A program made the position numbers and the translations under genes. Source: Escherichia phage N2. Taken from it: a DNA stretch of 64,000 nt. The stretch's first letter is position 1; each line of letters starts with the position of its first letter. The stretch is from sequence record ON645936.1; one strand, 5' to 3'. Positions 7,294-36,542 of this stretch are shown here, in pieces. The notes below the pieces were generated by a model. That model saw only the letters and a program-made list of their open reading frames with translations. It searched no databases and was not told where the DNA came from.

Positions 7294-7295
7294 AA

Positions 7296-7853: not shown

Positions 7854-7859
7854 AACTTT

Positions 7860-9038: not shown

Positions 9039-9044
9039 ATTTAA

Positions 9045-10672: not shown

Positions 10673-10673
10673 A

Positions 10674-11420: not shown

Positions 11421-11450
11421 ATTTTTCTCACGGACGGGTTAACTACTTAT

Positions 11451-11480
11451 ACTATAACATTTTTACTTTAATTTGTAAAC
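11451..11480 (-). promoter_or_regulatory. sigma70-type early promoter upstream of srd-like gene
   Basis: minus strand GTTTACA-N17-TGtTATAGT. Confidence 0.5.
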
Positions 11481-11536
11481 AACTTTATGAAAAATGCTTT
11501 AAAACTTTCATGGTATAATGAATCTAAGTCCTTCCA

Positions 11537-12139: not shown

Positions 12140-12759
12140 TCAACTACCTCAATATCATACACTTTAAATGTTCCAAATGAATCGTGTAATTTTTCTTTTG
12201 AAATAGAAGTTATTTTATACTTTCCAATTGGAATCATCCATTCTTGTTCACGCACAATCATCATTAAGTTATCAGTACGTTCTGAATCTAATCCATCAGT
12301 ATCTTCATATGTATACTTAAACTCAGTATTAGGAGAAGAAAGTATAATATCGCTGATATGGTCAGAATAATTAAAAGCTTTATCAGTTTTTAAGCGAAAT
12401 ATTATTTCAGTGAAATACTCAACATAAGAAAAACCACATGCTGTGTGCAAACTAGTAGTAAATGAATCTACTCTATTCGTTGAAAACACTTCTCCAACTT
12501 GTAAATCTTTAATGAGCTCTTTTGTCGATTTTGATATACCACGATATAGCTGATAAGGTGATTCAGTTAAATGCTTTTTAATGATTTTATTTAACTGCCG
12601 ATGAAGAGCTTCATTCTTTTTGGCTTCCATACATTGCCAAAGAACTGACTGCTCAAAGTCAGTAAATTTTTCACAGACTTTTTTATACATATCATATTGA
12701 AAATCAACACTTTCAGCTTTTATAGATAACTGTTCAACATCTGCAAGATTAATAATCAT
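12136..12759 (-). CDS. modB: ADP-ribosyltransferase ModB
   Basis: 207 aa from ATG at 12759 with GGAGG SD; upstream promoter. Confidence 0.7.
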   Translation of the reverse strand: MIINLADVEQLSIKAESVDFQYDMYKKVCEKFTDFEQSVLWQCMEAKKNEALHRQLNKIIKKHLTESPYQLYRGISKSTKELIKDLQVGEVFSTNRVDSFTTSLHTACGFSYVEYFTEIIFRLKTDKAFNYSDHISDIILSSPNTEFKYTYEDTDGLDSERTDNLMMIVREQEWMIPIGKYKITSISKEKLHDSFGTFKVYDIEVVE

Positions 12760-12785
12760 GATAGCCTCCATATACTTCAGAAGCT

Positions 12786-12815
12786 ATCATATCATTGTTA
12801 GGAAGGAAAGTAAAC
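12786..12815 (-). promoter_or_regulatory. sigma70-type early promoter upstream of modB
   Basis: minus strand GTTTACT-N17-TGaTATGAT. Confidence 0.5.
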
Positions 12816-12826
12816 AACTTTTTGAA

Positions 12827-13009
12827 TTATTTTGCCCAGGGAGCCCAGGGCGGAGGGTCAAGATGGTATGAAGCTAGTTCTTCTAGAAGAGCATCTGGGG
12901 CTTCAATTCCATAATTCTGTAATACTATACGGTATTCTTTCTTATAATCACTAGAATCATTCTGGATATTCGTAGAATGATTATCTTCTAACATCTCAAA
13001 TAAATCCAT
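12827..13009 (-). CDS. hypothetical protein
   Basis: 60-aa ORF. Confidence 0.4.
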   Translation of the reverse strand: MDLFEMLEDNHSTNIQNDSSDYKKEYRIVLQNYGIEAPDALLEELASYHLDPPPWAPWAK

Positions 13010-13017
13010 ATTAATTC

Positions 13018-13488
13018 CTAGCGATAAAAACCAAAATAACGATTAGTTTCAATAATCTTTCTTTCTTCTTCGGACATTCTCCAGCGTAGTCCAACATCAA
13101 AATGAGCCCAGACCATCTTAACGAATGCATTTATATCTTTAATATCTTCAATAATGAATGTTTTACTTTTAGAAGGTTGACTCGCTAATTTAACTTTATC
13201 ATCTTCAAACAGGTCAAAAAGACCATATTCATGAGCTCTTTTATAGCCTTTAATAGTTAAAGCTTCAGAAGAAGAAAACGGTGAATCAGTGTTCTGCAAA
13301 ATATCTTCAGTATGCTTTATAATTAGAATGACATTTTCTGGATATTTTCTTTCTTTTATATCTTTAATTAAAAGATCCGGATTTTCTGCTAAAGGAATAA
13401 TTAATGAGCACTCTTTATCAAGTGTATTTACCGATTTACCTTCTTTAGACATAAATTCTATTGAATAATGTTTTGCTACTTCAATCAT
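13018..13488 (-). CDS. hypothetical protein
   Basis: 156-aa ORF. Confidence 0.5.
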
Positions 13489-13633
13489 GTGATTTCCTCT
13501 TGCCTACTAATGGGCCGTCAGGAATTTTGTTTTCCTGGATATATTTCTCATTTTCTTCCATCATTTTACTGCCAATTTTAAGAAGCAAATCCAATGCTTC
13601 ATTTGCTTTAGCCTTGGCCTCTTCTAGCGTCAT
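13481..13633 (-). CDS. small ORF (50 aa, not in track)
   Basis: hand-translated [17 protein letters not shown]...; stop overlaps next start. Confidence 0.35.
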
Positions 13634-13641
13634 ATCTCTGT

Positions 13642-13845
13642 TCACGATTTATCCCCATAGATGTCTCTCATCAATTTAAGCGCTGAGCGTTCTAATTTCT
13701 TTTCTTTCTCGGCACTAATCATTGATTTCATCCATTCTTCTGATTCGTTCTGCATTTCTTTATTTGCTTGTTCAACCCAACCATCATCAATATACATTGA
13801 GTTTGGTCTATTGAACCATTCAAACATTTTCTTCAGAACTTTCAT
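13642..13845 (-). CDS. hypothetical protein
   Basis: 67-aa ORF. Confidence 0.45.
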
Positions 13846-14317
13846 TTATTTTACCTAAAACAACAGTAGGAGCATCGTCAAATTTATGAATTTTTAGCAA
13901 ATTTGGATTTAAATTATTCCATAAAGAGGTAATAAAATATGATAGCGCATTTTCTTCCGTAATTATAAATTTATTTCCCTTATCTATTTTCCAGTCATAT
14001 ATTGAATCATATGAATATAATGGCAGCGGTTTATTGTTATAATATGCTTCAGCAACATCAATATAGTTAGATTTAGTAAATGCTTCAATTGCTCTAAATG
14101 GAATATTTGGTACAGTTTCAATGATACCAATCTTTTTAAGCTTTATTTCAGCATCTTCTGGAACTGGCATTGAAACGAAATTTTCTACGAGATACATTGG
14201 GTCACAATAACCCTTATCAATCATTATTGCTACTGTAATTGGAACATCTTTAGCAAACGACATGCTATCACTGCTAATATACATTTCAAACAAAATCGCT
14301 TCCATAATTTTCCTCAA
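13820..14317 (-). CDS. hypothetical protein
   Basis: 165-aa ORF. Confidence 0.5.
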
Positions 14318-14655
14318 TCACAAGATGTAGATGAACAACTAGAATCACAAGAACTTCCACACGAATCGCCCGTCCATACATGAACAGGAACATTAGTGTC
14401 ATATGAATCAGAACTAGACTGTGTATTCTGCGTATTAGATGATGTAGTAGGTGTTGACCAACGCCAAGGATTTTTATAATATTCTTGGGCTTCTTCATAA
14501 GTCATAGTAACTGCTTCTACTGTTCCATCTCCCATATAAACATATTCAACTACAGTTAAAGGAAGATTGTCATTTGAAATAGGAACTACACCTTCTCCGG
14601 GAGTTGTAGAGAAAAAATCCGTAAAGAAACTTTTAAACCAATTAAAGATAAACAT
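14314..14655 (-). CDS. hypothetical protein with Cys/Ser-rich C-terminal tail
   Basis: 113 aa ending [18 protein letters not shown]. Confidence 0.5.
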
Positions 14656-14867
14656 TACAAAAAGCCTCTTTGAAATTCGACTCTTTGAAATCCACCCCAG
14701 TCAGTGTATCGCATTTCAGCATTGAACTCGACTGAACCATCTGCATGCATCATGAATGAATGCGTGACGATATCACAATCCCAGCTTTTCATACCCCATT
14801 TATCAGAGATAGCTTTATCAAGAACCTTCTGGAGGTCTTCATTTGGTTTAATCCAGCGATTTAACAT
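14655..14867 (-). CDS. hypothetical protein
   Basis: 70-aa ORF downstream of promoter 14894..14923. Confidence 0.45.
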   Translation of the reverse strand: MLNRWIKPNEDLQKVLDKAISDKWGMKSWDCDIVTHSFMMHADGSVEFNAEMRYTDWGGFQRVEFQRGFL

Positions 14868-14893
14868 AGTGCTCTCCTCTATAAGATAATTCT

Positions 14894-14923
14894 ATTATAC
14901 CATACTCATTTTGGAAAGTAAAC
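14894..14923 (-). promoter_or_regulatory. sigma70-type early promoter
   Basis: minus strand GTTTACT-N17-TGgTATAAT directly after soc terminator. Confidence 0.55.
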
Positions 14924-14928
14924 CGGTA

Positions 14929-14957
14929 AAATGAAAAAAGGACTCCTTCGGGAGTCC
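14929..14957 (-). terminator. intrinsic terminator after soc
   Basis: GGACUCC-CGAA-GGAGUCC then UUUUUUCAUUUU on minus RNA. Confidence 0.65.
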
Positions 14958-14966
14958 TTGAATTTA

Positions 14967-15212
14967 TTAACCACCAGTTACTTTCCACAAATCTTCGTTT
15001 GCGGCAATCCATTCAGTACGTTGATTTTCTTCATATACTGTAGAATATGCTGCTTTTTCTGAAGGGAATGTCTGGTAATGAGCGCCAGAAATTTTGTGAA
15101 CGTCAGAATAAAGAGGGAAAGCTACAGAAATTTCCTTTCCTTCAATTTTCTTATTTCCATCTAATTTCTGCTCAAACGTTTTGATATTAACATAACCGCG
15201 AGTACTAGCCAT
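14967..15212 (-). CDS. soc: small outer capsid protein Soc
   Basis: 81 aa starting MASTRGYVNIKTFEQ; late promoter upstream, terminator downstream. Confidence 0.85.
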   Translation of the reverse strand: MASTRGYVNIKTFEQKLDGNKKIEGKEISVAFPLYSDVHKISGAHYQTFPSEKAAYSTVYEENQRTEWIAANEDLWKVTGG

Positions 15213-15242
15213 GTAATTCTCCTTTTATTTAAATTACATGAT

Positions 15243-15250
15243 TATTTATA
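15243..15250 (-). promoter_or_regulatory. late promoter upstream of soc
   Basis: exact TATAAATA on minus strand about 30 nt before soc ATG. Confidence 0.6.
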
Positions 15251-15920
15251 CATCTTCTTTTCTGAATAAGTAAATTAAATTCTTAAGAGCTGAACTTGTT
15301 ACATCATATTTTCCTTTAAGCGCCTTTACAACCGGGCCTGTTGCTGGTTTACCTAAAGAAACCCATAACTCGTGTATTTCGCTTTTAAGTGGTTCATGCC
15401 AATGCGGTGCTTTTCTTTGCGCCCTTGAAGTTCCTTCTGAAATCTTTTTATTTCCGCCATTTGAATAAAACTTTTTCATTACTTCAGATTGCCGAGCTTT
15501 TCGTTCTGCTCTATTTTGGGCTATACGTTGTGAATTCTTCATCCGAGTTTTTGTTTCAGGGTTGTTTAATCTAAGTTTATGTTCTAATCGTTGTTGCTCA
15601 GTCCATTTTCTTCCTTCTCCACCCTGACCACCAGGAGAAATATTAATGCAAGTATCTGGGTGTTTACGTTTTAATGCAGATATTAGCTCGCGTTCAACTT
15701 CATATGATTTTTCTCTAGAACCATGGCATTTTGACCAACGTATTTTATAATTAAAACCATACTTACGATATATGTTCCATAGTATTTTGCCTGAACCCGG
15801 ATATTTATCATCATATGGATTTACAATAAATGATTCATGCTTCCCAGCGTACCAAAAGACGCCTTTCGGCGTCCTAACTTTTACTATATATGTTCTATAA
15901 AATTTTTGTTTAATACCCAT
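15246..15920 (-). CDS. segF: GIY-YIG homing endonuclease (SegF-like)
   Basis: 224 aa from ATG at 15920; YIVKV...FWYAGKH motif; between 56 and soc. Confidence 0.6.
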   Translation of the reverse strand: MGIKQKFYRTYIVKVRTPKGVFWYAGKHESFIVNPYDDKYPGSGKILWNIYRKYGFNYKIRWSKCHGSREKSYEVERELISALKRKHPDTCINISPGGQGGEGRKWTEQQRLEHKLRLNNPETKTRMKNSQRIAQNRAERKARQSEVMKKFYSNGGNKKISEGTSRAQRKAPHWHEPLKSEIHELWVSLGKPATGPVVKALKGKYDVTSSALKNLIYLFRKEDV

Positions 15921-16425
15921 TATCTTGACGTTCAAAATTATGTTTATTTTTCAAATAATAAAGTTTAAAAATTTCTTCCGCATTCATTCCAAGGCCAGCA
16001 AACATATTTAATACGAAATGAAATATATCCACAAGCTCAAATTTAATTTCGAGCTGATCTTCTGGGGACATTTCATCAATGCGTTTTTCTTGCGCTTCAA
16101 TATAACGTGCTTTCCATTTTTTCCAAACTGCCGATGCATCTTTTTCACCACGTGACATTTCACCAAGAGAAGTCAGAAGTTCGCGGAATTCATCATCAAT
16201 ACAGTCTTTTTGTTCACGCATCCAAGAAACAACATCACCGGCAGTTTCTAATTTATCTGGATGATAGCAGTATTCGCGGTCATTTGCTAAACGAACCTGC
16301 AAAGATTTCTGCATATCAAGCATAACCTGCAGCGGGTCTTTTTCATCACCGAGAATATCCCAGTATTCATTTTGAGCTTTATCAGCGCCTTCGATCAGAT
16401 GACTACATTCGTTGAAATGTGGCAT
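15910..16425 (-). CDS. 56: dCTP/dUTP pyrophosphatase
   Basis: 171-aa ORF, size and position of T4 gp56. Confidence 0.8.
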   Translation of the reverse strand: MPHFNECSHLIEGADKAQNEYWDILGDEKDPLQVMLDMQKSLQVRLANDREYCYHPDKLETAGDVVSWMREQKDCIDDEFRELLTSLGEMSRGEKDASAVWKKWKARYIEAQEKRIDEMSPEDQLEIKFELVDIFHFVLNMFAGLGMNAEEIFKLYYLKNKHNFERQDNGY

Positions 16426-16498
16426 GTTATTTTTCCTTTCAATTCATGGGTTAGTAGATTAATTATACAATAAATATATAAAGCAATAAGGAGGACAT

Positions 16499-16699
16499 AT
16501 GGTACAAAAATTAATGGCACTTGTTAATGCCATCAAAGGTAATAAAAAACGTATAGCTTTTACTATTTCTGCTATGATAGGAATTTTACTTTGGAATTTT
16601 GTTTTATCGCCAGTTGCTCTCGCTCATGGCGTTAGTATTCCAGTAATTACTCTTGATACATTCGTAGATTTAGCATTTGCTTTAGTTGGGTTAATTTAA
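16499..16699 (+). CDS. small hydrophobic membrane protein (plus strand)
   Basis: 66 aa, AAGGAGG SD 6 nt before ATG; convergent with primase. Confidence 0.4.
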   Translation: MVQKLMALVNAIKGNKKRIAFTISAMIGILLWNFVLSPVALAHGVSIPVITLDTFVDLAFALVGLI

Positions 16700-17724
16700 A
16701 TCTTAGCATATTTAGATAGACGCATTTTAGCCATCAACCCTTGAGCAATATTATTTTTCATATATTCCATAATTTGTTCAGGGGTTGCACCTTCCTTTCT
16801 AATCATATCATTAACATCTTTTGATTTCCAGGGAGATTTGTCCCAAAACATAACCCTTTCTCCTGCATCAACTAATTTAGTCATTCGTTTAATAGTATCA
16901 GGGTGACGAGGTTCATTATCTAAAACCCATACACGTCTATCTTTAAATGGAACAATTTCTAGGTCTAATTGACCACCCGTAATAGCTATACCATTTTCAA
17001 TAAAAAGTGAATCTATAGGTCCTTCTAGAACATATACATCACCATCTTTGACTCGTTCGACTCCATAGATTTTTGTTGCCTCGGGATAAGCTTTGATGGT
17101 GATATATTTTTGAGGAGCATCTTTCTTTAATGCACGTCCTTGAAAAGACTCAGCTTTTCCATTAGCATTATAAATTGGAATAACAAGACGAGGCTCAGGT
17201 ATTTCCTTTTTATATGTTCCTGGTGCTATACTATTAACTAATTTAGGCCATTCGGTTGTAAACCAAAGATATTTCCATTTATCCTTTGGAATACAACGAG
17301 CTTTTACGTATTTTATAATTGGATGGTCTTCCGCCAGTTTATCTAATCTAATGCATGACGGAAGAGATTTAATTATTTTCGTCTCAGGTTGTTTAGGAAG
17401 TTCTTTAGGTTTTTCTACTGGACGACTTTTACCTTTTTCTTTTCTTATTTCAAAGATATACTCACGATATAAATCAGGTTCAAACTCCTTTAAATATATT
17501 CCGATTGGTGCATGATAGTTACAGTTATAACAATGAATATTTCCTTCATTATTATCACCATAATACCATCCACGAGCTTTATTTTGGTCGGTTTTTGAAT
17601 CTCCACAAACAGGGCATCTAAACCGTAATTTAAAAGTTGAACTATTATTTACTTGTGTGAATTTAGGTAAATGAGCTAGCGCACGATATGCAAACTCATT
17701 ATCAATCCAAGGTATTGATGACAT
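16696..17724 (-). CDS. 61: DNA primase
   Basis: 342 aa; zinc finger CPVCGDS...CYNC. Confidence 0.9.
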   Translation of the reverse strand: MSSIPWIDNEFAYRALAHLPKFTQVNNSSTFKLRFRCPVCGDSKTDQNKARGWYYGDNNEGNIHCYNCNYHAPIGIYLKEFEPDLYREYIFEIRKEKGKSRPVEKPKELPKQPETKIIKSLPSCIRLDKLAEDHPIIKYVKARCIPKDKWKYLWFTTEWPKLVNSIAPGTYKKEIPEPRLVIPIYNANGKAESFQGRALKKDAPQKYITIKAYPEATKIYGVERVKDGDVYVLEGPIDSLFIENGIAITGGQLDLEIVPFKDRRVWVLDNEPRHPDTIKRMTKLVDAGERVMFWDKSPWKSKDVNDMIRKEGATPEQIMEYMKNNIAQGLMAKMRLSKYAKI

Positions 17725-17726
17725 TT

Positions 17727-17891
17727 TTACTCTTCTTTTTCTTTAGATTCCTCTTTTTTCTTTTTAGGAATCTGTTCAGGACCTTTATTTACTACAGCGC
17801 CTGATGTTGTTCCAGTAGAGATATTTTCAGGACTACCACCTGAATCTCCAGCGACCATATCTTCTTTGATAAATTCTTTATATGTTTTCAT
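17727..17891 (-). CDS. small acidic ORF (54 aa, not in track)
   Basis: hand-translated MKTYKEFIKEDMVAGDSGG... Confidence 0.35.
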   Translation of the reverse strand: MKTYKEFIKEDMVAGDSGGSPENISTGTTSGAVVNKGPEQIPKKKKEESKEKEE

Positions 17892-17892
17892 A

Positions 17893-18249
17893 TTAACCTC
17901 TATTCATAAAAGCATTAAAAATTTGGTCATCAATAGATGGTGCAGTAATATTTTCTGCATCATTTAGCAAATCATTAATTTCATCAGATAGCATAACACA
18001 TGTACCTTTATTTCCTGTAATTGTTACTGCGCAATTACGAACGTTTTCTTTATTAAATTTTAGGTTAATATTTTCGTAATGAAAATCCTTTAATGCTGAA
18101 TATATTTTTAAAATGAAATTGTCTTTTACTACAATAAACCCAACCTCACTATTAAAACGCGGTTCATGGAAACTGTAATAAACCTTTTCATCTATAAAAT
18201 CGTATGAAATTTTTTCCATTTTTAAATATGAAAATTCAGAACTATACAT
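17893..18249 (-). CDS. hypothetical protein
   Basis: 118-aa ORF. Confidence 0.5.
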   Translation of the reverse strand: MYSSEFSYLKMEKISYDFIDEKVYYSFHEPRFNSEVGFIVVKDNFILKIYSALKDFHYENINLKFNKENVRNCAVTITGNKGTCVMLSDEINDLLNDAENITAPSIDDQIFNAFMNRG

Positions 18250-18261
18250 ATTAACCTCTAA

Positions 18262-18555
18262 TTACTCACCTACCACTTCAGCGATGATATTTTTATTATT
18301 AAAGTTTTTATCGCAATATAGAACATAATTATACTGCATTACACCACCAGACTTAAGCTGTTTTTGCACTTCAGCTTTCATTTCAGGACGATCACGTTCA
18401 ACGATATTCATAATATCCGCTTCAATTTGAGTTTCAACCTCAGTCTGATCCGCAGTCATAGACCATTCGCACAAATCTTTATCATAACCTGCCATAGCAG
18501 GCTGAGCAGCACAAGAAGCTAAAGCAAAAATTGTAGCAAAGATAAATTTTTTCAT
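18262..18555 (-). CDS. sp: periplasmic spackle-like protein
   Basis: 97 aa from internal ATG (MKKFIFATIFALASCAAQPAMA signal peptide); promoter 18585..18614 lies inside the longer track ORF. Confidence 0.65.
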   Translation of the reverse strand: MKKFIFATIFALASCAAQPAMAGYDKDLCEWSMTADQTEVETQIEADIMNIVERDRPEMKAEVQKQLKSGGVMQYNYVLYCDKNFNNKNIIAEVVGE

Positions 18556-18584
18556 GATTAATCTCCTCAGTAGTTTATGTTTAT

Positions 18585-18614
18585 ATAGTATCTCAATTTC
18601 CAATAAAAGTAAAC
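18585..18614 (-). promoter_or_regulatory. sigma70-type early promoter upstream of sp
   Basis: minus strand GTTTACT-N17-TACTAT. Confidence 0.5.
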
Positions 18615-18616
18615 AG

Positions 18617-18916
18617 TTATTTTAAAACTTTTGCGTAATCACATGTTACAAACTGTTTCTCTAGCTTAACGATCTTACGAAAATACCTTTTACACTGACG
18701 AATCTGCCGCTTCGTAGGGCGAACAGCAAACTTAATAAATTCCACTCGACCAAATGGAGGACTTTCTTCTGCTGGAATATCTAACACCAATTCCCACGTA
18801 TCGGCAATAAGTGCTTTGAATTGCGTATTTTTCCTGACGTTATACGGAGTAGGTTTAAATAAAACAATATGCATATTATCCTCGGCAATCCACTTCACAT
18901 ACTTTCTTGTCATCAA
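18617..18916 (-). CDS. hypothetical protein
   Basis: 99-aa ORF between primase and helicase genes. Confidence 0.45.
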   Translation of the reverse strand: MMTRKYVKWIAEDNMHIVLFKPTPYNVRKNTQFKALIADTWELVLDIPAEESPPFGRVEFIKFAVRPTKRQIRQCKRYFRKIVKLEKQFVTCDYAKVLK

Positions 18917-19058
18917 TGAAAGCTTTAACTAATGCTTTATTAACTTCAGCATATTGAGTAGTAGCCCATTGAACGTCATCTTTCATCATTGTGATTTCTT
19001 TAGTAAACATGCTTTCATTCTTAAACCACCCCATAAAAACTACCTTTACCAATTCCAT
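18876..19058 (-). CDS. dmd: Dmd-like small protein (candidate antitoxin)
   Basis: 60 aa immediately upstream of gene 41, as T4 dmd; own promoter. Confidence 0.5.
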   Translation of the reverse strand: MELVKVVFMGWFKNESMFTKEITMMKDDVQWATTQYAEVNKALVKAFIDDKKVCEVDCRG

Positions 19059-19087
19059 AACAATCTCCCCATTTAACCAACAAGACT

Positions 19088-19117
19088 ACTATACCATAGT
19101 CTTGTCAGCTTGTAAAC
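19088..19117 (-). promoter_or_regulatory. sigma70-type early promoter upstream of dmd-like gene
   Basis: minus strand GTTTACA-N17-TGgTATAGT; overlaps gene 41 stop. Confidence 0.5.
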
Positions 19118-20544
19118 TAAAATTTTAATTCATTTGCCAAAGCATCTAACTGAGCTCGAGTCGATTCGTTTCTTTGATAGCGATTCTGTTCAGCCTGAAT
19201 CTGTTGTGAACCTGCTACCTCACTCACTTCAGTTGGAGTAGAATCTTGTTCAATTTCTACCCATTTCTGATTTCCTTTTTGAACACCCATCAAAAACTTA
19301 TTCCACTTATTCTTATCACCATATCGTGATTTGATTTGCTTAATGAGTTGTTGTTCAGCAGCTGCTAGCTCCTCGGTTTCAATGACCGCAAGCATAAAAT
19401 CAGCTGTTGCTGGAAGACCAGCAGATTCTGCGATATCACTCATGTTAACATCAGAAGAGTCCCAAGCTTGTTTACCAACCTGTGCTGCAGTCCAAAGAAC
19501 AGTTTCGGTTTCAACAGCCAGAGCACGCAATTCCTCTGCGATAGCTTTAACAGTTGTGTAACTATTTTCTGAATAAACTCTAATGCGGCAAGATTTACAA
19601 ATACCTAGATAGTCGACAATAATGATTGTTGGAACAAAATTCTTCTTGAGCTTCAATTCGTTTAAAAGTGATCGAAATGTATTAGCGTCTGCTCCACCAG
19701 TAGGATATTGCTTAACGATTAAACGACCAAGGGTAGATTTCTCACGCCATTTTTCCATTTTTCCTTTATATTCAGCGTAAGAAATATGTCCATCATCAAT
19801 ATCGTCAAGAGAAACATCGAGCATGTTAGCATCAATACGTTTAGCACAGACTTCTTCTGCCATTTCCATGGAGATATAAAGAACGTTATGACCAAGCTGC
19901 AAATAATCTGCTGCTAATGAACAAAGTCCTAATGATTTACCAACGTTAACGCCAGCCATTAAAACGTTCAGTGTTCCAGTCTCAGCTCCGCCTTTAGTAA
20001 TTTTGTTTAGAATTCTGAGTTTAAATGGAACCTTACGAGCTTTATTCATATAAGATAGCCAACGCGCTTCATAGTCATCCATCCAATCATGACCAACGTA
20101 GCTATCAAATGAAATTGATAATGCTTGGCGCATGATGTCAGGAATAGCACCTACATCTGGCATTTTCTTATTTCGTTTTTCCGGAGGAAGCTCAGCATTA
20201 GTTTGAATTTCGATTATTTTAGACGTAGCATTAAACATCGCCCTTTGCTGAACATATTTTTCTGTTTCTTTTACTAACCAGCTGTGGTCTTCCGGAGAAT
20301 CAGCCAGTTTTGAAATAAGTGTTTTTACACCAGAATATTCTGTTTCAGTAAATGAACTATTTTCTAATGCAACATTTAACGCATTAATAGATGGAACGCT
20401 ATGATACTCATTGACATGAGATTTAATTAATTTGAATGTATTTTTAGCTGGACCACTTTCAAAATATTCTGAATCCATATATGGCCAAACTTTTGAAAAA
20501 TAAGCTTGATCAAATATGAGATGAGAAAGAATAATTTCTACCAC
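19117..20544 (-). CDS. 41: replicative DNA helicase (DnaB-like)
   Basis: 475 aa; Walker A GVNVGKS. Confidence 0.9.
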   Translation of the reverse strand: MVEIILSHLIFDQAYFSKVWPYMDSEYFESGPAKNTFKLIKSHVNEYHSVPSINALNVALENSSFTETEYSGVKTLISKLADSPEDHSWLVKETEKYVQQRAMFNATSKIIEIQTNAELPPEKRNKKMPDVGAIPDIMRQALSISFDSYVGHDWMDDYEARWLSYMNKARKVPFKLRILNKITKGGAETGTLNVLMAGVNVGKSLGLCSLAADYLQLGHNVLYISMEMAEEVCAKRIDANMLDVSLDDIDDGHISYAEYKGKMEKWREKSTLGRLIVKQYPTGGADANTFRSLLNELKLKKNFVPTIIIVDYLGICKSCRIRVYSENSYTTVKAIAEELRALAVETETVLWTAAQVGKQAWDSSDVNMSDIAESAGLPATADFMLAVIETEELAAAEQQLIKQIKSRYGDKNKWNKFLMGVQKGNQKWVEIEQDSTPTEVSEVAGSQQIQAEQNRYQRNESTRAQLDALANELKF

Positions 20545-20553
20545 ACTTACTCC

Positions 20554-20916
20554 TTAAAAGAATTTAAATTTTTTCTTTGACCTTTTATTAAATGCATCTT
20601 GTAGTTGCATTGTAATACATTTTTCTACATGAGGAGCTAACTCAGCTTTTCTTTCTTGGTCAAGAACAGCAAAGTCCATTACAACCTTTCCATCAACCCA
20701 ATCCAGTTTAGTTACATACACTATATGTGTAGAACCATCTTCTAGTTTAATGACAATCTCCTGGATAACATTTTCCATGGCAGATTTAATTATCTTAAGA
20801 GATTCATTAAAAAGACGTTCTTTTCTTTCTTCTTCCCCCTCCGAAGAGGGGGATTCATCGATAATTTCTAGATCTAAATCTAAATCATCTTTATTCATTA
20901 AATTCTTCCATATCAC
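20554..20916 (-). CDS. 40: gp40-like protein
   Basis: 120 aa between 41 and uvsX. Confidence 0.5.
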   Translation of the reverse strand: MIWKNLMNKDDLDLDLEIIDESPSSEGEEERKERLFNESLKIIKSAMENVIQEIVIKLEDGSTHIVYVTKLDWVDGKVVMDFAVLDQERKAELAPHVEKCITMQLQDAFNKRSKKKFKFF

Positions 20917-22072
20917 TTAACTGATCTAGGTCAGTTTCTAAATCAGCTGCTGATTTGTTTTTACTTTCTGGAGATTTAAATTTTTCAACCTTTGAGTTAA
21001 TCAATTCATCAACTTCAGCTTCAACAATTTCATTACTATCAATAGCACCTAACTGATAAGCACGTTTAATAGCATCTCGGAATGGCTGATGCTTAAATAA
21101 AGGACCCCAGAATGTAGTGCAGTTGGTATCTTTTGCACGCCAAGATTTTTCTTCGCGAATCATCTCGCCTGTTTCTTCGTCAAGAAATTCACGAGCATAC
21201 CAGCCATTTTTAGGTTTTACTACAAATCCTAATTCAAGAGCCATATCTAACAATCCAGAATAAGGATCGATACCACCGTCAAATTTAACATCAATAAAGA
21301 ATTTACTTTTTTCTTTAACAGTACGAGATTTTTCTACATTTAGAACAAATTGATACCCCTGAAGATCAGAACCATCTTTAATCTGGCGCTTACCGATAAT
21401 GAATACAGTATCAGCCGAATACATTACGCCTGTACCACCTGTCATCACGGTTTTACTAAACATTTCAATTGTTTCAATTGTATGGTTAACCGCAACACAT
21501 GGAATATTTTTAATGCTAAAATAAGGAGTAACAATACGGAATAATGACTTCAGTGATTTAGCACGAGTCATATCTGCCACAGATTTTTCATTCAAGGCAT
21601 CTTCCGTTTCTTTCTTAGAAGCCATATTACCGATTGAGTCGATGAATACAATAACTTTTTCACCGCGCTCAATAGCTTCAAGCTGATTCACCATATCAAT
21701 TTTCAGCTGTTCAACTGACTGGATTGGCGTATGAATTACTCGTTCCGGGTCAACCCCCATGGATCGCAAATAAGCTGGAGTAATACCAAATTCACTATCA
21801 TAGAATAGACAAACCGCGTCAGGATATTTGTTCAAATATGCCGCAACCATAGTCAAAGACATATTTGATTTAAAGTGTTTAGAAGGCCCTGCGAAAATAG
21901 TTAAACCAGACTGCATACCGCCATCAATCGCACCAGAAATAGCAATATTGAGCATTGGAATTTTTGTACGGATTACATCCTTTTCATTAAAGAATTTAGA
22001 TGTAGTCAGTTCAGCAGTCATTTTAGAAGTGGAAGCTTTAATCAAACGGGATTTTAAATCTGCAATAGACAT
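20891..22072 (-). CDS. uvsX: RecA-like recombinase UvsX
   Basis: 393 aa; RecA core GPSKHFKSN. Confidence 0.9.
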   Translation of the reverse strand: MSIADLKSRLIKASTSKMTAELTTSKFFNEKDVIRTKIPMLNIAISGAIDGGMQSGLTIFAGPSKHFKSNMSLTMVAAYLNKYPDAVCLFYDSEFGITPAYLRSMGVDPERVIHTPIQSVEQLKIDMVNQLEAIERGEKVIVFIDSIGNMASKKETEDALNEKSVADMTRAKSLKSLFRIVTPYFSIKNIPCVAVNHTIETIEMFSKTVMTGGTGVMYSADTVFIIGKRQIKDGSDLQGYQFVLNVEKSRTVKEKSKFFIDVKFDGGIDPYSGLLDMALELGFVVKPKNGWYAREFLDEETGEMIREEKSWRAKDTNCTTFWGPLFKHQPFRDAIKRAYQLGAIDSNEIVEAEVDELINSKVEKFKSPESKNKSAADLETDLDQLSDMEEFNE

Positions 22073-22149
22073 TCATTTTTTCCATAGGCATCATTATATT
22101 TTCCTCACTGGTTAAAGATAGAGTAATTATAACACAATAAATTTAGGCA

Positions 22150-22998
22150 TTAATCAACCGCTATTGGATGAATAGCATTAAACTTATGAAACGCTTCTGA
22201 TTTTTCTTTGCGCGAAACACACATGCGAAAAACCTTTAATGGCTCGTCTTCTTCACCCAACGATTTTCGTTTTTCAATATTAGAAGTTTTCCAACGAGCT
22301 TGCTCTGGAAACTCTTTATTGATTTGCTCAAGAGCTCTATTATGTTTTGAATTACTACGAATTGAGCTGCATCCACCGGGAGCCTGCGCTTTTCCAGATA
22401 CAACCAAATATTTGAACAAGGCCAAATGCGGATAACCTTGATTAATTAAATTGAGAAATGCATACATATCTTCGCATAAATCAATTTTTCCATACCCAAT
22501 TTGTTCTGTTGTAAGTTTTCCAAGGTCATACCATGTATTCGTGAATCCATATGAATTTTCACGATAATTACCCCAAGATGAAGTAATTTTAAAAATAGGT
22601 AGACGAGCATGGCCATGATAATACCCGCAATCCATGGCATCTTCAACGTATTGAATCAATTCATAGAACTGTTCACGAGTTAATTGATTAATTTTATCTA
22701 CGCAGCGACGATCATCTTTCTTTCGCATTGAACTCATACGAATAGTAGTATCATCATCAATCATCCAAATTCGCTGACCTGCATACATATCAGTAATTGC
22801 TTTACGAGTACCAGCAATTCCATTAACATCATCAGGAATAGTTATAATTTTAGCTCTAGACCCGTAAGCGTCATAATAAGCTTTTTCTTCATGTTCACGT
22901 ACTACAATATGAGGTTCATAATCAGTCGGAAACATATCAAGGGCAGAAACTGCCCCTACGCGTTGATAGCTTGGAATTACGAATTGAATCATTTCCAC
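22150..22998 (-). CDS. putative DNA glycosyltransferase (DxD-type)
   Basis: 282 aa with IWMIDDDTT motif; sits where T4 has beta-gt but translation does not resemble T4 beta-gt as recalled. Confidence 0.5.
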   Translation of the reverse strand: MEMIQFVIPSYQRVGAVSALDMFPTDYEPHIVVREHEEKAYYDAYGSRAKIITIPDDVNGIAGTRKAITDMYAGQRIWMIDDDTTIRMSSMRKKDDRRCVDKINQLTREQFYELIQYVEDAMDCGYYHGHARLPIFKITSSWGNYRENSYGFTNTWYDLGKLTTEQIGYGKIDLCEDMYAFLNLINQGYPHLALFKYLVVSGKAQAPGGCSSIRSNSKHNRALEQINKEFPEQARWKTSNIEKRKSLGEEDEPLKVFRMCVSRKEKSEAFHKFNAIHPIAVD

Positions 22999-23729
22999 TC
23001 ACCATTATAATCTTTTTTCGCAATATGAGTTTCGCCAGTTTTCCACCAATGGTCAACCAAATAAAAATGACGGGAATACACATGAAGGCTTCCGACATTC
23101 CATATAATGGAACCTGCTTTATACTGACGAGTTGAATCGCCTGCATTCAAATCAGATACTAATTTATCTAATACGTATTTTTGCCATGCATAATCATTAC
23201 GGAATCCGAAGACCACGTCATTTGAGCGCATGCTTACTACTGCATTGACTTTCTTATCACGAATCAGGTACTGTACTGTATTAGTACACATGAAATCTGA
23301 CATGCCATCTTTATTGTAGTCAAACTGCATAGATGGACGAGTATAAATCATGATACCACGTCGAGAATCAGGATTTTGACCAAGTTCAGCTAAACACATG
23401 TCATATTGAGCATAGTTATCTTCTGACCAGATAGCCCAACCATAATTCGAGTTAATTTCACCTTTAGAAGATGCTACCTGTTGCCAAATCTTTGGTGTTT
23501 CACCTGGAATATCTTTAACAAACAGACTTTGAGACTTGTACCATTCAAGTTCACGCTGAATGTATTCATCATTAAGAGCGCCAAAAATAAACGGTTCATC
23601 TGCTACAAATGATGCGCCAATAATTTCAATAGTTTTAACACCAGTTTTATCAACTACGAAATCTTTTTCCTTTAATGCAGTTCCCAAATGAAGACGGATT
23701 TCTTCAACTGTCATAGAGTCACTAATCAT
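22989..23729 (-). CDS. 42: dCMP hydroxymethylase
   Basis: 246 aa, thymidylate-synthase-like; position. Confidence 0.85.
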   Translation of the reverse strand: MISDSMTVEEIRLHLGTALKEKDFVVDKTGVKTIEIIGASFVADEPFIFGALNDEYIQRELEWYKSQSLFVKDIPGETPKIWQQVASSKGEINSNYGWAIWSEDNYAQYDMCLAELGQNPDSRRGIMIYTRPSMQFDYNKDGMSDFMCTNTVQYLIRDKKVNAVVSMRSNDVVFGFRNDYAWQKYVLDKLVSDLNAGDSTRQYKAGSIIWNVGSLHVYSRHFYLVDHWWKTGETHIAKKDYNGEWK

Positions 23730-23882
23730 TTAAACCTCAATTGATACATTCATATTTAACTTGTAACAGTAATAAACCCCAACCTAAAATAATAGTTGGA
23801 ATCATAAGAGGAACCGTTACACTATAGTATATACTTATTATAATCATCAAGATTAAAAGCAATGCTGATATAATTTTGCTTT

Positions 23883-24134
23883 TCATTCCTTCTCTCTGAT
23901 GATAATTACCTGATTTGGCTGCGCAGACTTTTTAGTTTCACCTGCAATTGACCAAATAAATGTAATAAACCAACCAATAATTGACCAGTTAAACAGTAAA
24001 GATGTGAAAAAGATTCCTACTGTCGATTTTGACCCACGCATCAAGGCGATAAACCATGGAAGCATGTATATAATAATAGCCAACACGCCTGAAACTAAAA
24101 CCACAAAAATTGAACCTGCTACTAAAGTTTCCAT
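23883..24134 (-). CDS. imm: immunity protein Imm (membrane)
   Basis: 83 aa, two hydrophobic helices. Confidence 0.75.
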   Translation of the reverse strand: METLVAGSIFVVLVSGVLAIIIYMLPWFIALMRGSKSTVGIFFTSLLFNWSIIGWFITFIWSIAGETKKSAQPNQVIIIREKE

Positions 24135-24141
24135 GTTTTCC

Positions 24142-24522
24142 TCACTTAGTCAAATTTTTTACGCATGAATTATAAGAATTTACTACATACTCCATCGGAG
24201 CATTTTTACCGGTACGCCATTGGTAATTATTAGCCCAATTTGCCCAAAGTTCAGCACAGTAGTTTTCAATTTTTTCTTCACGTGTAATCACATCTGAATT
24301 ACGATATGCTTGGGCAGATTCATCTGGACGAATAGCTTCGTCAAAATTCGCCTGCATTTGTTCTACTGTCTGTTTTGGAGCCTCTTTATAACACTTAACA
24401 TTAGGATTATAAAATTTGCTTGAACAGTTTACAATTTTTCCTACATCAGACTGATTTACTACTGGTCCTTGAGCTACACAACCAGTAAGACCCAATGCAA
24501 TAACCAAAATAGCGATTTTCAT
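24142..24522 (-). CDS. lipoprotein
   Basis: start reassigned to MKIAILVIALGLTGC (lipobox); promoter 24557..24586. Confidence 0.5.
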   Translation of the reverse strand: MKIAILVIALGLTGCVAQGPVVNQSDVGKIVNCSSKFYNPNVKCYKEAPKQTVEQMQANFDEAIRPDESAQAYRNSDVITREEKIENYCAELWANWANNYQWRTGKNAPMEYVVNSYNSCVKNLTK

Positions 24523-24556
24523 TTCATTCTCCAAATCCGTATCAGTTGATAGTTAT

Positions 24557-24586
24557 ATAGTACCATAAAGGAACCGGGATGTAAAC
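24557..24586 (-). promoter_or_regulatory. sigma70-type early promoter with conserved leader
   Basis: minus strand GTTTACA-N17-TGgTACTAT. Confidence 0.5.
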
Positions 24587-24668
24587 CATTTTGTGAAAAA
24601 ATTTTTAATGAATTCAAAGGGCCCAGAATCATCTATTTTTCCTAAGTATAGATTTATATTACTTGTAT

Positions 24669-24690
24669 GAAAAAGGGACCCGGAGGTCCC
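24669..24690 (-). terminator. intrinsic terminator after gene 43
   Basis: GGGACC-UCCG-GGUCCC then UUUUUC on minus RNA. Confidence 0.55.
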
Positions 24691-24703
24691 TAGATTTATT
24701 CTA

Positions 24704-27400
24704 TCAGCCAAACAGGAAGTCTAACGAAGCTTTTTCCTCATAGTCCATACCTGCCGATTCACACATGCCCGCAAGCGGTTTAACAAACGATTTTTGGAAC
24801 AAAGTTGAGTAGTCAATCCAAGACAGTACATCAGAACGAATTTCTTTTGGAAGTTCCGTACCCGACGGCCAAGCAATGCACTTATCACCAAATGGATTTC
24901 CTTCACGTAATGGAAGAACCATTACCTTATTTCCATCCAAAATTGGAGCTACACCTAAACCATTAACAGCTCGACGATAAGTTAGCACCCCACGAATGTG
25001 GAACGGGCATTTAAATCCTGGCCAACCTTTATCATCATATTTCGCTATATCGTTCGCAGTTTTTACTTCAGCAATAACTTTATAGTCAAGTTGACGATAT
25101 TCTTTCTCAAAGTTCTTGTAGTATTCTTGGACAGACTCTTCACCTTCCTGAAGAATACGACGAATACTTTCTTCGAGAGCTTCTTGTACTGCTTTTGGTG
25201 TTGAACTCTGCTGAGTTTCCATACCCATGATTTTTAGATGTGGTTCAGCAAATCGTTTATCTTCCATATCATAAACGTTCAGAGCATAACGCTTTTTCGC
25301 TTTCCAAAATCCACCAACACCCTTTGAACCAAGTGGAGGGCAAGAAATAGCTTCACGGTCCATATGCATCAGATGCTCGCGGTTATTCATATAATCACAT
25401 AACTCACGATATGCAACATCAATCATAGGTTCCATCTTTTTCTTACCAAACTGATTCATGAATTCAACTAAATCGTTCTGCTCTTTGAATCGGTCAAGAC
25501 CAACTTTTTCAACAACTTTATCTACGCAAACATATACCGAATCAGTATCACCTGCTGCGATGAAATCTTCACCATTAGTTCCGCATACTTTATTCAGATA
25601 TTCATTAATTTTACGAGCAATCCACTGAATACCAACTTGGCCGAAAATTGTGATAGCAGTAGCATTTCGCAAATCATAGTAACGGAAATGAATATTACCA
25701 AGAGCACCATAAAGACTGTTAATAAGAATTTTACGGTTCAGTTGATTTGTGTTAGCAAGTGTAGCCGCTTTTTCACATTCTTCAATCAGACTATTGAGAA
25801 CGGATTCGGTGTAATTCGATAGTTCATTTAAGAAATCATCATTGAACTTAACATATCGTTCAACTTCTGGTTTAGTTGAACAAGACCCTGCGCCTTTCAT
25901 AATAATCTTTTTAATAGCTTCGGCATTCATTTCTTCAGCGAACATTTTCTTTTTCCAATCTTTACGCTGGAAAAATACTTTAGCGATTTCCTTTGGAATG
26001 ATACCTTCTTGATGCTTATCATACATCCATCCATTCGGAGAGCAAGAATATTCATCACTCGGTTTAGGAGCTGTTCCTGCAATATATTCATGAATTGGAT
26101 GAACTTTAAACTGCCCACGAATAGTCTCAGGACTAATGTTAACCTGACGAATAATGCTAGGATACAGAGACGTCAAGTCAAAACTCATAATATATCGACG
26201 AGCAATTGGTTTAGGTTCAAACACAAATGCACCCGGAAAACTCTGTTTAACGTGCGAACCCTGTTGAGGAATAACCTTATGTTCACCTTTCAATGAGTTA
26301 AAAATAATAGCATCCCAAGTTTTAATAGGACTCATTACACCAGAAAAAGGCATTTTAGCGTAATAAGACATACTTAAAACTAGATCGATAAACCCGCGAA
26401 TTTTATCAATTGCTTGAACTGATTCTACGTCAATGATGTTATAACTAATGTATCGTTGATGATTAGTCTCACGAAGTTTATTAATAGGACCGTCGTATGG
26501 TAATTTACCTTTTTTGGTTTCATGTTGAGCAACTGATTCCAAAGAGAATGACGGCAAATTAGTAAATGCGAATTTCTTGTACAAATCTAAATAATCAAGA
26601 ATAGATACGCCATCAATAGAATAAATTTCTTTGCTACCGTACACATTTTGAATTAGTTTAGATTTTACCCGACCGATTGGAGAGAAACGTTTCATACTAC
26701 GTTCACCGAGAACCATTTTAACGCGATTCATGATATATGGAACGTCAAACCCCTCAATATTCCAACCAGTAAAAATAGCAGGTCGTTTCTGTTCCCAGAG
26801 ATTGATATATTCCATGAGCATATCACGCTCATTATCGAATGGCATATAAATTACTCGGTCAAGAATTTCTTGAGGAACTTCATCACCACCTTCACAGTCA
26901 AGCTTAGCAGCTAACTTTGCATCCCATTTTGATACTGAACCGTACATTGAATTCAAAAGGTCGAAAACATAAAAACGATCGTCAATTGAATCGTAATGAG
27001 TGATAGCATCAATTTCATATTCTGCTTTCATTGGGTCAGGAAATTTATCACCAGTAACCTCAATGTCACAGTTAGCTATACGAACAAATTTTCGGTCATA
27101 AACAATTTCTGAACCATATGTATCACTGATATAAGCGAGTTTAAAATCGTTCATACCGAGAGCTTCGAGACCGATGTCTTCCATTCGTTTCATCCAATCT
27201 CGGGCATCTTTCATTGATGGAAATTTTTGAGGAGCGCAGTTTTTACCGTAAATGTCTTTGTACTTTGACTCTTCCTTACAATGCCTAAACATAGTCGGAA
27301 GATATTCTACTTCACGAGTACGTTCCTTTCCGTTTTCATCAATATAACGTTCAACAATGTTATTTCCGACTGTTTCAATAGAGATATAAAATTCTTTCAT
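24704..27400 (-). CDS. 43: family B DNA polymerase
   Basis: 898 aa; exonuclease and polB motifs incl. AAGDTDS. Confidence 0.95.
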   Translation of the reverse strand: MKEFYISIETVGNNIVERYIDENGKERTREVEYLPTMFRHCKEESKYKDIYGKNCAPQKFPSMKDARDWMKRMEDIGLEALGMNDFKLAYISDTYGSEIVYDRKFVRIANCDIEVTGDKFPDPMKAEYEIDAITHYDSIDDRFYVFDLLNSMYGSVSKWDAKLAAKLDCEGGDEVPQEILDRVIYMPFDNERDMLMEYINLWEQKRPAIFTGWNIEGFDVPYIMNRVKMVLGERSMKRFSPIGRVKSKLIQNVYGSKEIYSIDGVSILDYLDLYKKFAFTNLPSFSLESVAQHETKKGKLPYDGPINKLRETNHQRYISYNIIDVESVQAIDKIRGFIDLVLSMSYYAKMPFSGVMSPIKTWDAIIFNSLKGEHKVIPQQGSHVKQSFPGAFVFEPKPIARRYIMSFDLTSLYPSIIRQVNISPETIRGQFKVHPIHEYIAGTAPKPSDEYSCSPNGWMYDKHQEGIIPKEIAKVFFQRKDWKKKMFAEEMNAEAIKKIIMKGAGSCSTKPEVERYVKFNDDFLNELSNYTESVLNSLIEECEKAATLANTNQLNRKILINSLYGALGNIHFRYYDLRNATAITIFGQVGIQWIARKINEYLNKVCGTNGEDFIAAGDTDSVYVCVDKVVEKVGLDRFKEQNDLVEFMNQFGKKKMEPMIDVAYRELCDYMNNREHLMHMDREAISCPPLGSKGVGGFWKAKKRYALNVYDMEDKRFAEPHLKIMGMETQQSSTPKAVQEALEESIRRILQEGEESVQEYYKNFEKEYRQLDYKVIAEVKTANDIAKYDDKGWPGFKCPFHIRGVLTYRRAVNGLGVAPILDGNKVMVLPLREGNPFGDKCIAWPSGTELPKEIRSDVLSWIDYSTLFQKSFVKPLAGMCESAGMDYEEKASLDFLFG

Positions 27401-29424: not shown

Positions 29425-30111
29425 TTAAAAATCGTGGGTAGAATCAGCTTCAAGAGCTACTACATAATTCGCGTGTTCACCTTCAAATTTAGCAGCGCCT
29501 TGTTTACCTTTTGCCCAGAGCAGAAGTTTATAATTTCCTGGTTGCATTTTCATATTTGCCATATTGATAATGAAATTAAATGTATTTTCACCGTCATAAT
29601 CACCAAGAGTCAAAGAATATTTAACACGGGTCAAAGCAGAATCTTCCACTTTATTAAAACCGTTAATTACGATTTTACCTTCTTTTACTGTGATAGCAAT
29701 TGTATCAATCTGCAGACCGCGAGATACACGCAACAGCTGTTGAAGGTCTTCCGCTTTAATTTCAGTAACAACAGATGCTACCGGGAATGGAATTGGTTTA
29801 TTAGGAGCAACTACTGTACTCGGATCAGCTGCTGGCCAAAAAATTGTTGAACGGGCATCAGCAATTTTAATATTACCATCTTCTGACTGGGAAATTTCTG
29901 CATCATCATTAACTAGAGACAGAATACCGAGAAAACCGTTCAAATCGTAAATTGCTACATCAAAATCAATAGTGTCAGAAATATTTGCTTCCGCATAAGT
30001 TGTGCCATTAACCGCGCGAGTCATAATAAATTGACCGGATTTAAGCATAATACCAGAGTTAATAGTAGCGAAATTTTTCAAAATATTCAGCGTGTCTTTA
30101 GATAATTTCAT
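29425..30111 (-). CDS. 45: sliding clamp
   Basis: 228-aa ORF, position. Confidence 0.9.
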   Translation of the reverse strand: MKLSKDTLNILKNFATINSGIMLKSGQFIMTRAVNGTTYAEANISDTIDFDVAIYDLNGFLGILSLVNDDAEISQSEDGNIKIADARSTIFWPAADPSTVVAPNKPIPFPVASVVTEIKAEDLQQLLRVSRGLQIDTIAITVKEGKIVINGFNKVEDSALTRVKYSLTLGDYDGENTFNFIINMANMKMQPGNYKLLLWAKGKQGAAKFEGEHANYVVALEADSTHDF

Positions 30112-30995
30112 TTCAATTTCCTATTTACATAATAGTTAGACCAGGACCGTACAGCACCCTGATAAGATTCGTCGTTAAACCCATTAGCTACTGCAATTTT
30201 ACGAAATTTATTATAACTCGGTTTTCCGTAAGCATGCCATAAAGATTTTAATTCATCTTCATGTTCAATCCAAGTTCCTCTAGCTTTAGATTTTCTAAAT
30301 TTTGATTTGAATTCCGGTAAATTATTTCTAACAGTTGCTTGAATTGAAGCTCTCTGTCTTCTTTCAGCATTATTCCATAATTCTTTTTGAGATTTAGAAA
30401 TTTTTGATCTTACACTTTCTGAATTCATTATATCACTAAACTTTTTAGCATAACTACAATCAAGATATTTCAATTTCATCTTATTTGAGAGTTTAAGCTT
30501 TTTCTCATCGGTCCAGTGAATCTTCATTGAATTAGATATTTTGTATTTTACGTCAGAACTATGTTTGTAACCTTTACGAATACCAACATAATCTGGTGTG
30601 ATTTCAGATTGTGAAAGCTTTACAATTTTTCCAGTTAAAACATTTTTATATGTTCCATATCCTTTAGCACCAATTAAAGTATTTTCATCTGCGTACGCTT
30701 TATTAAAATATTTTATATTACTTTTTGCTTTAACTTTTAATTGAAAAAATCTTTCCAATTTTCTTGGATCTAATATAGTTTCAGCCAAAATTTTGACGGT
30801 ATATTTAGTGGTTTTAATAAGCTCAAAATATTCATCGCTATAACTCGATGACACGCTTCCAGTATAAATCTTTCCAGCTGAATCAATTATATTTGTTCCA
30901 TCGAAAATTGCGTCAATTTTCGAACCTATATAATAACACGGAAAAATATTTTTAGCTTCCCGCTCTGGAAAGCTAATAAGATATACTAAATTCAT
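30108..30995 (-). CDS. GIY-YIG homing endonuclease (seg-like)
   Basis: 295 aa; VYLISFPE...CYYIGS motif; basic repeat-rich C-terminus. Confidence 0.6.
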
Positions 30996-31633: not shown

Positions 31634-32350
31634 ATGAATTATAAACTAATTTATGAAAAGTTAATCTCTAATGCTAAATCTCGAAAACTTGATTGCTATA
31701 CTGAATCTCATCACATTATACCACGCTGTTTAAATGGCAGCGATGATGCTTCAAACTTAGTAGATTTAACACCAGAAGAGCACTATGTAGCTCATCAACT
31801 TTTAGTAAAAATTTATCCTTCTGAACCAAAATTAGTCTATGCTGCTAACATGATGACAGTTTCTACGAAATACGCTAAACGTAACAATAAAACTTTCGGC
31901 TGGATTCGTCGTAAACTCTGGGAAATAGAAAAGAATAAAGAGTTCTCCCAAGAGACACGAAAGAAAATGTCCGATGCAGTAGCTAATAAAGCAAGACTAA
32001 CTTGTCCACATTGCGGTAAGTCTGGATTAAGCGGGAATATGAATCGATGGCATTTTGATAACTGCCCAAATCACCCCAATCCTAAAGTTAGACCGCCAAT
32101 GTCTAAAGAACACAGAAATAATATCTCAAACGGGCTTAAAGCAATCGTTCTTGAAGAAACATCCTGCGAATTCTGCGGAATGATAGGCAAGAAATGCGTT
32201 ATCGCAGCGCATAGAAATTTCTGCAAGAAAAATCCAAATGGACGCAAGAAAACTGAAAAGACTGGTACTTGCGTCCATTGTGGTAAAGTTACCACTTTCG
32301 GAAATTTATCAAGATGGCATAATGATAATTGTAAATATAAACCTAGCTAA
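31634..32350 (+). CDS. HNH homing endonuclease with three zinc-ribbon repeats (plus strand)
   Basis: 238 aa; ESHHIIPRC...NLVDLTPEEH; three CxxCG...RWH..NC repeats; AAAGGA SD. Confidence 0.7.
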   Translation: MNYKLIYEKLISNAKSRKLDCYTESHHIIPRCLNGSDDASNLVDLTPEEHYVAHQLLVKIYPSEPKLVYAANMMTVSTKYAKRNNKTFGWIRRKLWEIEKNKEFSQETRKKMSDAVANKARLTCPHCGKSGLSGNMNRWHFDNCPNHPNPKVRPPMSKEHRNNISNGLKAIVLEETSCEFCGMIGKKCVIAAHRNFCKKNPNGRKKTEKTGTCVHCGKVTTFGNLSRWHNDNCKYKPS

Positions 32351-36524: not shown

Positions 36525-36542
36525 AAAGGGCCGAAGCCCTTT
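36525..36542 (-). terminator. UUCG tetraloop hairpin overlapping alpha-gt stop
   Basis: AAAGGGC-UUCG-GCCCUUU; T-run on plus strand. Confidence 0.45.

Follow-up and report, generated by a model that had tools for sequence, protein, structure and literature searches.

The open reading frame (ORF) between uvsX and gene 42 of Escherichia phage N2 very probably encodes a beta-alpha-glucosyltransferase of the T2/T6 type (ba-gt, also g-gt), a TAGT-family enzyme that makes gentiobiosyl-5hmC. The computed basis for this assignment is orthology, fold, conserved motifs, the partner alpha-gt and the absence of a T4 beta-gt from the window, by which we mean the whole stretch of DNA analyzed, spanning 64 kb out of a genome of ~170 kb; the chemistry and the T6 deletion phenotype were taken from the literature. 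The gene is already known and is ordinary for T4-like coliphages, and it is already annotated under the correct name in the GenBank entry with the identical protein. The features on which the analysis draws are as follows.

22061..23006, no strand: cassette without DNA homology to T4 (blastn of the window against T4)
22150..22992, minus strand: predicted ba-gt (beta-alpha-glucosyltransferase; beta-glucosyl-HMC-alpha-glucosyltransferase; TAGT family), from identity to orthologues, PF20691 and PHROG 842
22750..22758, minus strand: codons for D79-D80-D81, a DxD-type motif (gatgatgat read on the minus strand; 39-sequence alignment)
22989..22992, minus strand: ATGA overlap of the gene 42 stop and the ba-gt start (sequence ...GGTGAGTGGAAATGATTC...)
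22989..23729, minus strand: gene 42, dCMP hydroxymethylase (PF00303, thymidylate-synthase family; ~96% DNA identity to T4; PP01, T2 and T6 annotation)
36541..37743, minus strand: a-gt, DNA alpha-glucosyltransferase, 400 aa (PF11440, E = 9e-236; PDB 1xv5, E = 2.4e-256)

The slot between uvsX and gene 42

Starting with rIIA (12..2189), the window covers the left-hand end of a T-even (Tequatrovirus) genome, and nearly all genes in it are encoded on the minus strand. On one side of the slot, uvsX (20891..22072) was recognized by matches to PF21134 and PF00154 (RecA). Placed between uvsX and gene 42, the ba-gt ORF directly follows gene 42 and overlaps it, which is the location characteristic of its orthologue group. 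When the window was compared with T4 by blastn, ~93% identity extended as far as 22060, within the 5' end of uvsX, and ~96% identity resumed from 23007, within the 3' end of gene 42. The 946-bp cassette between these points stands in place of the 1941 bp of T4 (23556..25496) that hold segA and beta-gt. The initial annotation had correctly stated that T4 carries beta-gt (351 aa) in this slot, leaving segA, which is also there, unmentioned. Its claim that the slot in the window holds an ORF other than beta-gt was borne out: BLASTP of the ORF product against T4 beta-gt found no similarity (best E = 3.2), tblastn with T4 beta-gt found no match in the whole 64-kb window (best E = 1.4), and the T4 beta-gt family PF09198 was absent from the ba-gt protein even at E <= 1. 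The cassette DNA was 95-97.5% identical to the equivalent interval of T2, T6, PP01, Some and Geo. Base composition gave no sign of foreign origin: the GC content of ba-gt, 36.4%, equals that of uvsX and gene 42, and the gene is therefore one of long residence, not newly acquired.

Counted from a GTG at 22998, the ORF (22150..22998, minus strand) encodes 282 aa. The true start is likely the ATG at 22992, two codons further in and giving 280 aa, because this ATG overlaps the gene 42 stop in an ATGA, the corresponding ATG opens the annotated orthologues of PP01 and T2 (843 nt), and the 280-aa translation is identical residue for residue to GenBank UTQ79363.1 (phage N2). The ATGA overlap is kept in T2, T6 and PP01 and suggests translational coupling and co-transcription of ba-gt with gene 42. 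A scan for promoters and terminators around ba-gt gave counts not above those of shuffled sequence (12 versus 10.5 and 1 versus 0.8).

The sole terminator-like match of the region was a perfect hairpin, GGGGCAG-UUU-CUGCCC followed by a U-rich stretch, at 22938..22958 (minus strand), within codons 12-18 of ba-gt. The surrounding 86 nt fold with a z-score of -2.2, and the bases of the hairpin are invariant across T2, T6 and PP01. It lies just upstream of an internal methionine, Met20, which is the start used in T6 record MH550421. The hairpin may be due to chance.

Orthologues and prevalence

Alignment with the T2 and T6 beta-alpha-glucosyltransferases, which had been proposed as a check, gave protein identities of 98% (T2, 280 aa) and 97% (T6), and the Durham phages Some and Geo gave 98% and 97%. 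The PP01 orthologue differed from the window protein at one position only (L255F; effectively 100% identity). The protein matched PHROG 842 over residues 2-277 (E = 4e-89) and PF20691 (TET-associated glycosyltransferase, TAGT) at 38.8 bits, above the gathering cut-off of 27.5. Coverage of the latter profile was full, with residues 5-209 aligned to positions 2-205 of 205, and PF20691 is also carried by homologues. RB69 arabinosyltransferases had been named for comparison as well; these are not relevant to ba-gt, because the RB69 candidate is alpha-gt-like, scoring against the alpha-gt HMM (PMC6024577, Table 1), and orthology with T2 and T6 is decisive.

The ba-gt protein was found by tblastn in 689 of 50,697 phage records. 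At >=90% identity there were 472 such records, from T-even phages of Escherichia, Shigella and Yersinia, and these matches were mostly named "beta-glucosyl-HMC-alpha-glucosyl-transferase," "beta-alpha-glucosyltransferase" or "glucosyl transferase"; ~200 further records, at 60-80% identity, came from T4-like phages of Klebsiella, Enterobacter, Salmonella and Citrobacter. T4-type beta-gt, in comparison, was found in only 126 phage records, 29 of them at >=90% identity to T4. It has been reported that most glucosyltransferase-encoding phage genomes pair alpha-GT or beta-GT with TAGT and that alpha-GT is paired with beta-GT in only 6 of 753 (PMC13216743). Taken with the 689 and 126 records counted here, that figure indicates that the arrangement in the window is the rule and T4 the exception. 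The initial annotation had implied that the gene was unusual for its position, and this did not hold up, since the arrangement is that of the majority of Tequatrovirus genomes.

The public names of the two enzymes are confused. In RB55 the label 'beta-glucosyl-HMC-alpha-glucosyl-transferase' is given to the T4-type beta-gt; the TAGT-type gene is entered as 'b-gt' for PP01 and T2 and as 'putative beta-glucosyltransferase' for teqsoen. The name beta-glucosyl-HMC-alpha-glucosyltransferase has also spread to homologues of 62-66% identity that lie beside beta-gt, not alpha-gt.

Predicted fold and conserved residues

The DxD-like motif IWMIDDDTT pointed out in the initial annotation does occur, spanning residues 75-83 of the 280-aa protein. 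In a family alignment of 39 sequences extending down to ~21% identity, the invariant residues were I6, R11, R63, D79, D80, D81, D175, G186, G206, G207 and R212. The window ORF is full length, and its product keeps every one of them.

An AlphaFold2 model built from the same alignment (mean pLDDT 93.1, pTM 0.91) showed an alternating beta-alpha, Rossmann-like arrangement in which D79-D80-D81 directly follows strand 74-78, at the end of beta4. On this model, ba-gt is predicted to be a small single-domain enzyme of GT-A fold resembling solved GT-A enzymes. The T6 TAGT, modelled with AlphaFold3, was likewise assigned to the GT-A superfamily, where it is the sister of GT2, and T4 alpha-GT and beta-GT are GT-B enzymes (PMC13216743). 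A sequence search of the PDB with the ba-gt protein returned no meaningful match (best E ~1). As the family has no member with a solved structure, the fold comes from prediction and the roles of residues are inferred. By analogy with GT-A enzymology, the invariant D79-D80-D81 would presumably bind a divalent metal and the UDP pyrophosphate. D175, which belongs to a CED motif where helix 174-184 begins, is the candidate catalytic base for displacement with inversion; inversion is expected because UDP-alpha-glucose gives a beta-1,6 linkage.

Predicted pathway and DNA sugars

The partner gene alpha-gt accompanies ba-gt in the window, as it does in the orthologue group. It had been described as intact, and we confirmed an intact ORF of 400 aa, all of which (residues 1-400) was spanned by the match to 1xv5, the T4 alpha-GT structure. 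In the pathway that we propose, gene 42 would start the modification by making 5hm-dCMP, which would be incorporated during replication. Alpha-gt would then glucosylate about three quarters of the 5hmC in alpha linkage, producing the acceptor for ba-gt, which would add a second glucose from UDP-glucose, beta-1,6, onto the alpha-glucose to give gentiobiosyl-5hmC. The phage DNA should contain 5hmC, alpha-glucosyl-5hmC and gentiobiosyl-5hmC, without beta-glucosyl-5hmC from genes in the window.

This scheme follows what is known of T2 and T6, in which alpha-gt glucosylates ~75% of 5hmC and a second enzyme adds a beta-linked glucose onto alpha-glucosyl-5hmC, with gentiobiosyl residues reaching 5% in T2 and 72% in T6 (PMC6024577; bioRxiv 10.64898/2026.02.25.707755). 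T6 lacking ba-gt contains only alpha-glucosyl-hmC, and its DNA turns Brig1-sensitive in vitro (PMC11078745). Similarly, DNA of T6 delta-g-gt is a substrate of the BapA deglucosylase and wild-type T6 DNA is not (bioRxiv 10.64898/2026.02.25.707755). Ten Tequatrovirus isolates, Some and Geo among them, have had their alpha-5-gentiobiosylmethyl-dC measured by HPLC/MS; these isolates carry alpha-GT together with a TAGT that is syntenic with T4 beta-GT, and they have neither beta-GT nor beta-glucosyl-5hmC (PMC13390438). The initial annotation had raised the possibility of a second-sugar transferase acting on alpha-glucosyl-HMC, which is supported by orthology with T2 and T6 (PHROG 842, 97-98%) and by the T6 deletion (PMC11078745). 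Its prediction of a sugar pattern unlike that of T4 is supported through the same orthology.

A broader acceptor range is rather unlikely. The ba-gt lineage could be indifferent to the linkage of the first sugar, extending both alpha- and beta-glucosyl-5hmC, with the extent of gentiobiosylation (5% in T2, 72% in T6) set elsewhere, for example by expression, timing or the partner. The TAGT homologues of CC31, Klebsiella, Salmonella and Citrobacter phages share 62-66% identity with the window protein, lie beside gene 42 and bear the same annotation name. However, in several CC31-like, Salmonella and Citrobacter genomes the TAGT gene adjoins a beta-gt homologue, whereas the partner in the window is alpha-gt. 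The beta-gt neighbor implies that the acceptor in those phages is probably beta-glucosyl-5hmC or that the enzyme does not discriminate, and the question of whether TAGT enzymes discriminate between first-sugar linkages has also been raised in PMC13216743. If such indifference were true, the window allele and its background would be a natural variant for mapping the determinant of extent.

We consider it very unlikely that ba-gt transfers the first sugar to bare 5hmC, as a functional substitute for the T4 beta-gt whose genomic position it shares. Identity of 97-98% to the T2/T6 enzyme makes a change of acceptor improbable; T2, T6 and the Durham phages have the enzyme and yet retain ~25-33% unmodified 5hmC, without beta-glucosyl-5hmC; and T6 delta-ba-gt loses the second glucose only (PMC11078745).

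Extent of gentiobiosylation

The T2 and T6 enzymes are near-identical, yet the proportions of gentiobiosyl residues in these phages are 14-fold apart, and identity is therefore no guide to the extent or proportions of modification. In an alignment with T2, T6, PP01, Some and Geo, the window allele had the non-T6 residues Y40, D55 and R106; the high-gentiobiosyl phage Some likewise has D55 and R106, but has H at position 40. No substitution tracking the gentiobiosyl phenotype was found in the alignment of T2, T6, Some and Geo.

There is only a very slight chance that the window enzyme is inactive or weakly active, giving T2-like gentiobiosylation of ~5% or less through, for example, L255F or low expression. 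The T2 enzyme, at 98% identity, converts only ~5% of residues, and the apparent lesions of the gene in both public T6 records (described below) suggest that it is possibly dispensable in laboratory stocks. However, the ORF is full length, all family-invariant residues are kept and the ATGA overlap with gene 42 is preserved. L255F is a private change of the window protein with respect to the five aligned orthologues (T2, T6, PP01, Some and Geo), but position 255 is hydrophobic and variable in the family (F, L or I), and the change is unlikely to matter functionally. In addition, Some and Geo, with similar alleles, are one third to two thirds gentiobiosylated.

It is scarcely credible that ba-gt transfers a sugar other than glucose, or forms a linkage other than beta-1,6, so that the disaccharide would not be gentiobiose. 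In favor of this reading, TAGT proteins form a large and varied family (a profile searched against 1.84 billion cluster representatives gave 2169 proteins at E <= 1e-3 and 746 at E <= 1e-10), and mono- and disaccharides based on arabinose are made by other T4-like phages. Against it, near-identical enzymes occur in phages with chemically verified gentiobiosyl-5hmC, and the ORFs from gene 43 to uvsX follow the T2/T6/PP01 order, with no sign of the arabinose-pathway module that RB69 has in that interval.

The presence of dam serves as a proxy that separates Durham modification groups iii and iv, and the dam-less Tequatrovirus group has been reported to carry mostly gentiobiosyl-5hmC, ~two thirds (PMC13390438). 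Using Dam of Geo as the tblastn query, we did not find dam in the window. In Geo it sits between genes 56 and 61, for which the counterpart interval in the window is 16425..16696, and the restriction-enzyme-like ORF adjacent to dam in Geo was also absent from the window. As a correlation from a single paper, the proxy was not used for prediction.

T6 records and other features of the window

Both public T6 records showed apparent lesions in the ba-gt orthologue. Codon 10 is TAG in MH550421 (4138-4980, minus strand), where the annotated gene begins at Met20. In AP018814 (4135-4974, minus strand), one Asp of the invariant DDD is missing (WMIDDTTIR), giving 279 aa. Unlike these records, the window gene is free of both the codon-10 TAG and the DDD-to-DD deletion, and the lesions were not seen in T2, PP01, Some or Geo either. 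They are odd given that T6 is cited as 72% gentiobiosylated, and they may reflect variation among laboratory stocks or an error in sequencing the GATGATGAT repeat.

Unlike in T4, segA is missing beside uvsX. SegA-like (GIY-YIG) sequences, all on the minus strand, were found at 43033..43371 (49% identity to T4 SegA; inside ORF 42547..43377), 51946..52581 (25%; inside ORF 51922..52641) and 15618..15908 (28%; inside ORF 15246..15935). Three ORFs matched PHROG 655 (HNH/Mob-type homing endonuclease), at 30108..30995 (minus strand, E = 2e-31), 31634..32350 (plus strand, E = 9e-69) and 34047..34901 (minus strand, E = 8e-45). They are interspersed with genes 45, rpbA, 46 and 47 and form a dense cluster of mobile endonucleases in the replication and recombination block; the opposite-strand member shares 8 bases with the 3' end of gene 46. 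Searches of the whole window found no Rfam families and no tRNAs. When positions 1..25000 were compared with the phage collection, the best match was ~96% overall and 97.7% locally; with no record above ~96% overall, the genome is a mosaic unlike any of the isolates listed.

Host defenses and comparison with known systems

The gene indicates T2/T6-like DNA modification and in this way predicts how the phage would behave toward host defenses. DNA with gentiobiosyl-5hmC withstands the Brig1 glycosylase in vitro (PMC11078745), and the modification resists the BapA deglucosylase (bioRxiv 10.64898/2026.02.25.707755). The ~25% of 5hmC predicted to remain bare would leave the phage open to attack by systems directed at 5hmC, such as Brig3. 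The GmrSD-type enzyme BrxU cuts DNA with 5hmC, alpha-glucosyl-5hmC and gentiobiosyl-5hmC alike (PMC13390438). The assignment is useful for annotation and host-range prediction and brings no new biology.

The closest known system is ba-gt of T6 and T2, with which the window shares the slot between uvsX and gene 42, the ATGA overlap and the partner alpha-gt; the differences are a handful of conservative substitutions and the private L255F. With the PF20691 TAGT family as a whole, the window protein has in common the predicted GT-A fold and the DDD motif. Unlike the situation of TAGT enzymes linked to TET/JBP, however, 5hmC in the window would come from dCMP hydroxymethylase (gene 42) at the nucleotide level and not from a DNA dioxygenase, and by analogy with T2 and T6 the acceptor of the window enzyme would be a sugar already on the base.

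T4 beta-gt (PF09198) shares with the window enzyme the slot, the UDP-glucose donor and the formation of a beta-glucosidic bond. It is a GT-B enzyme without sequence similarity to the window protein, which is modelled as GT-A, and its acceptor is the hydroxymethyl group of 5hmC, whereas that of the window enzyme would be a sugar hydroxyl of alpha-glucosyl-5hmC. The GT2-like inverting GT-A enzymes TarP, TarS, AvpGT and SpsA share only 7-15% identity with the window protein; compared with them, it has neither membrane nor carrier-lipid domains, and its substrate is borne on DNA.
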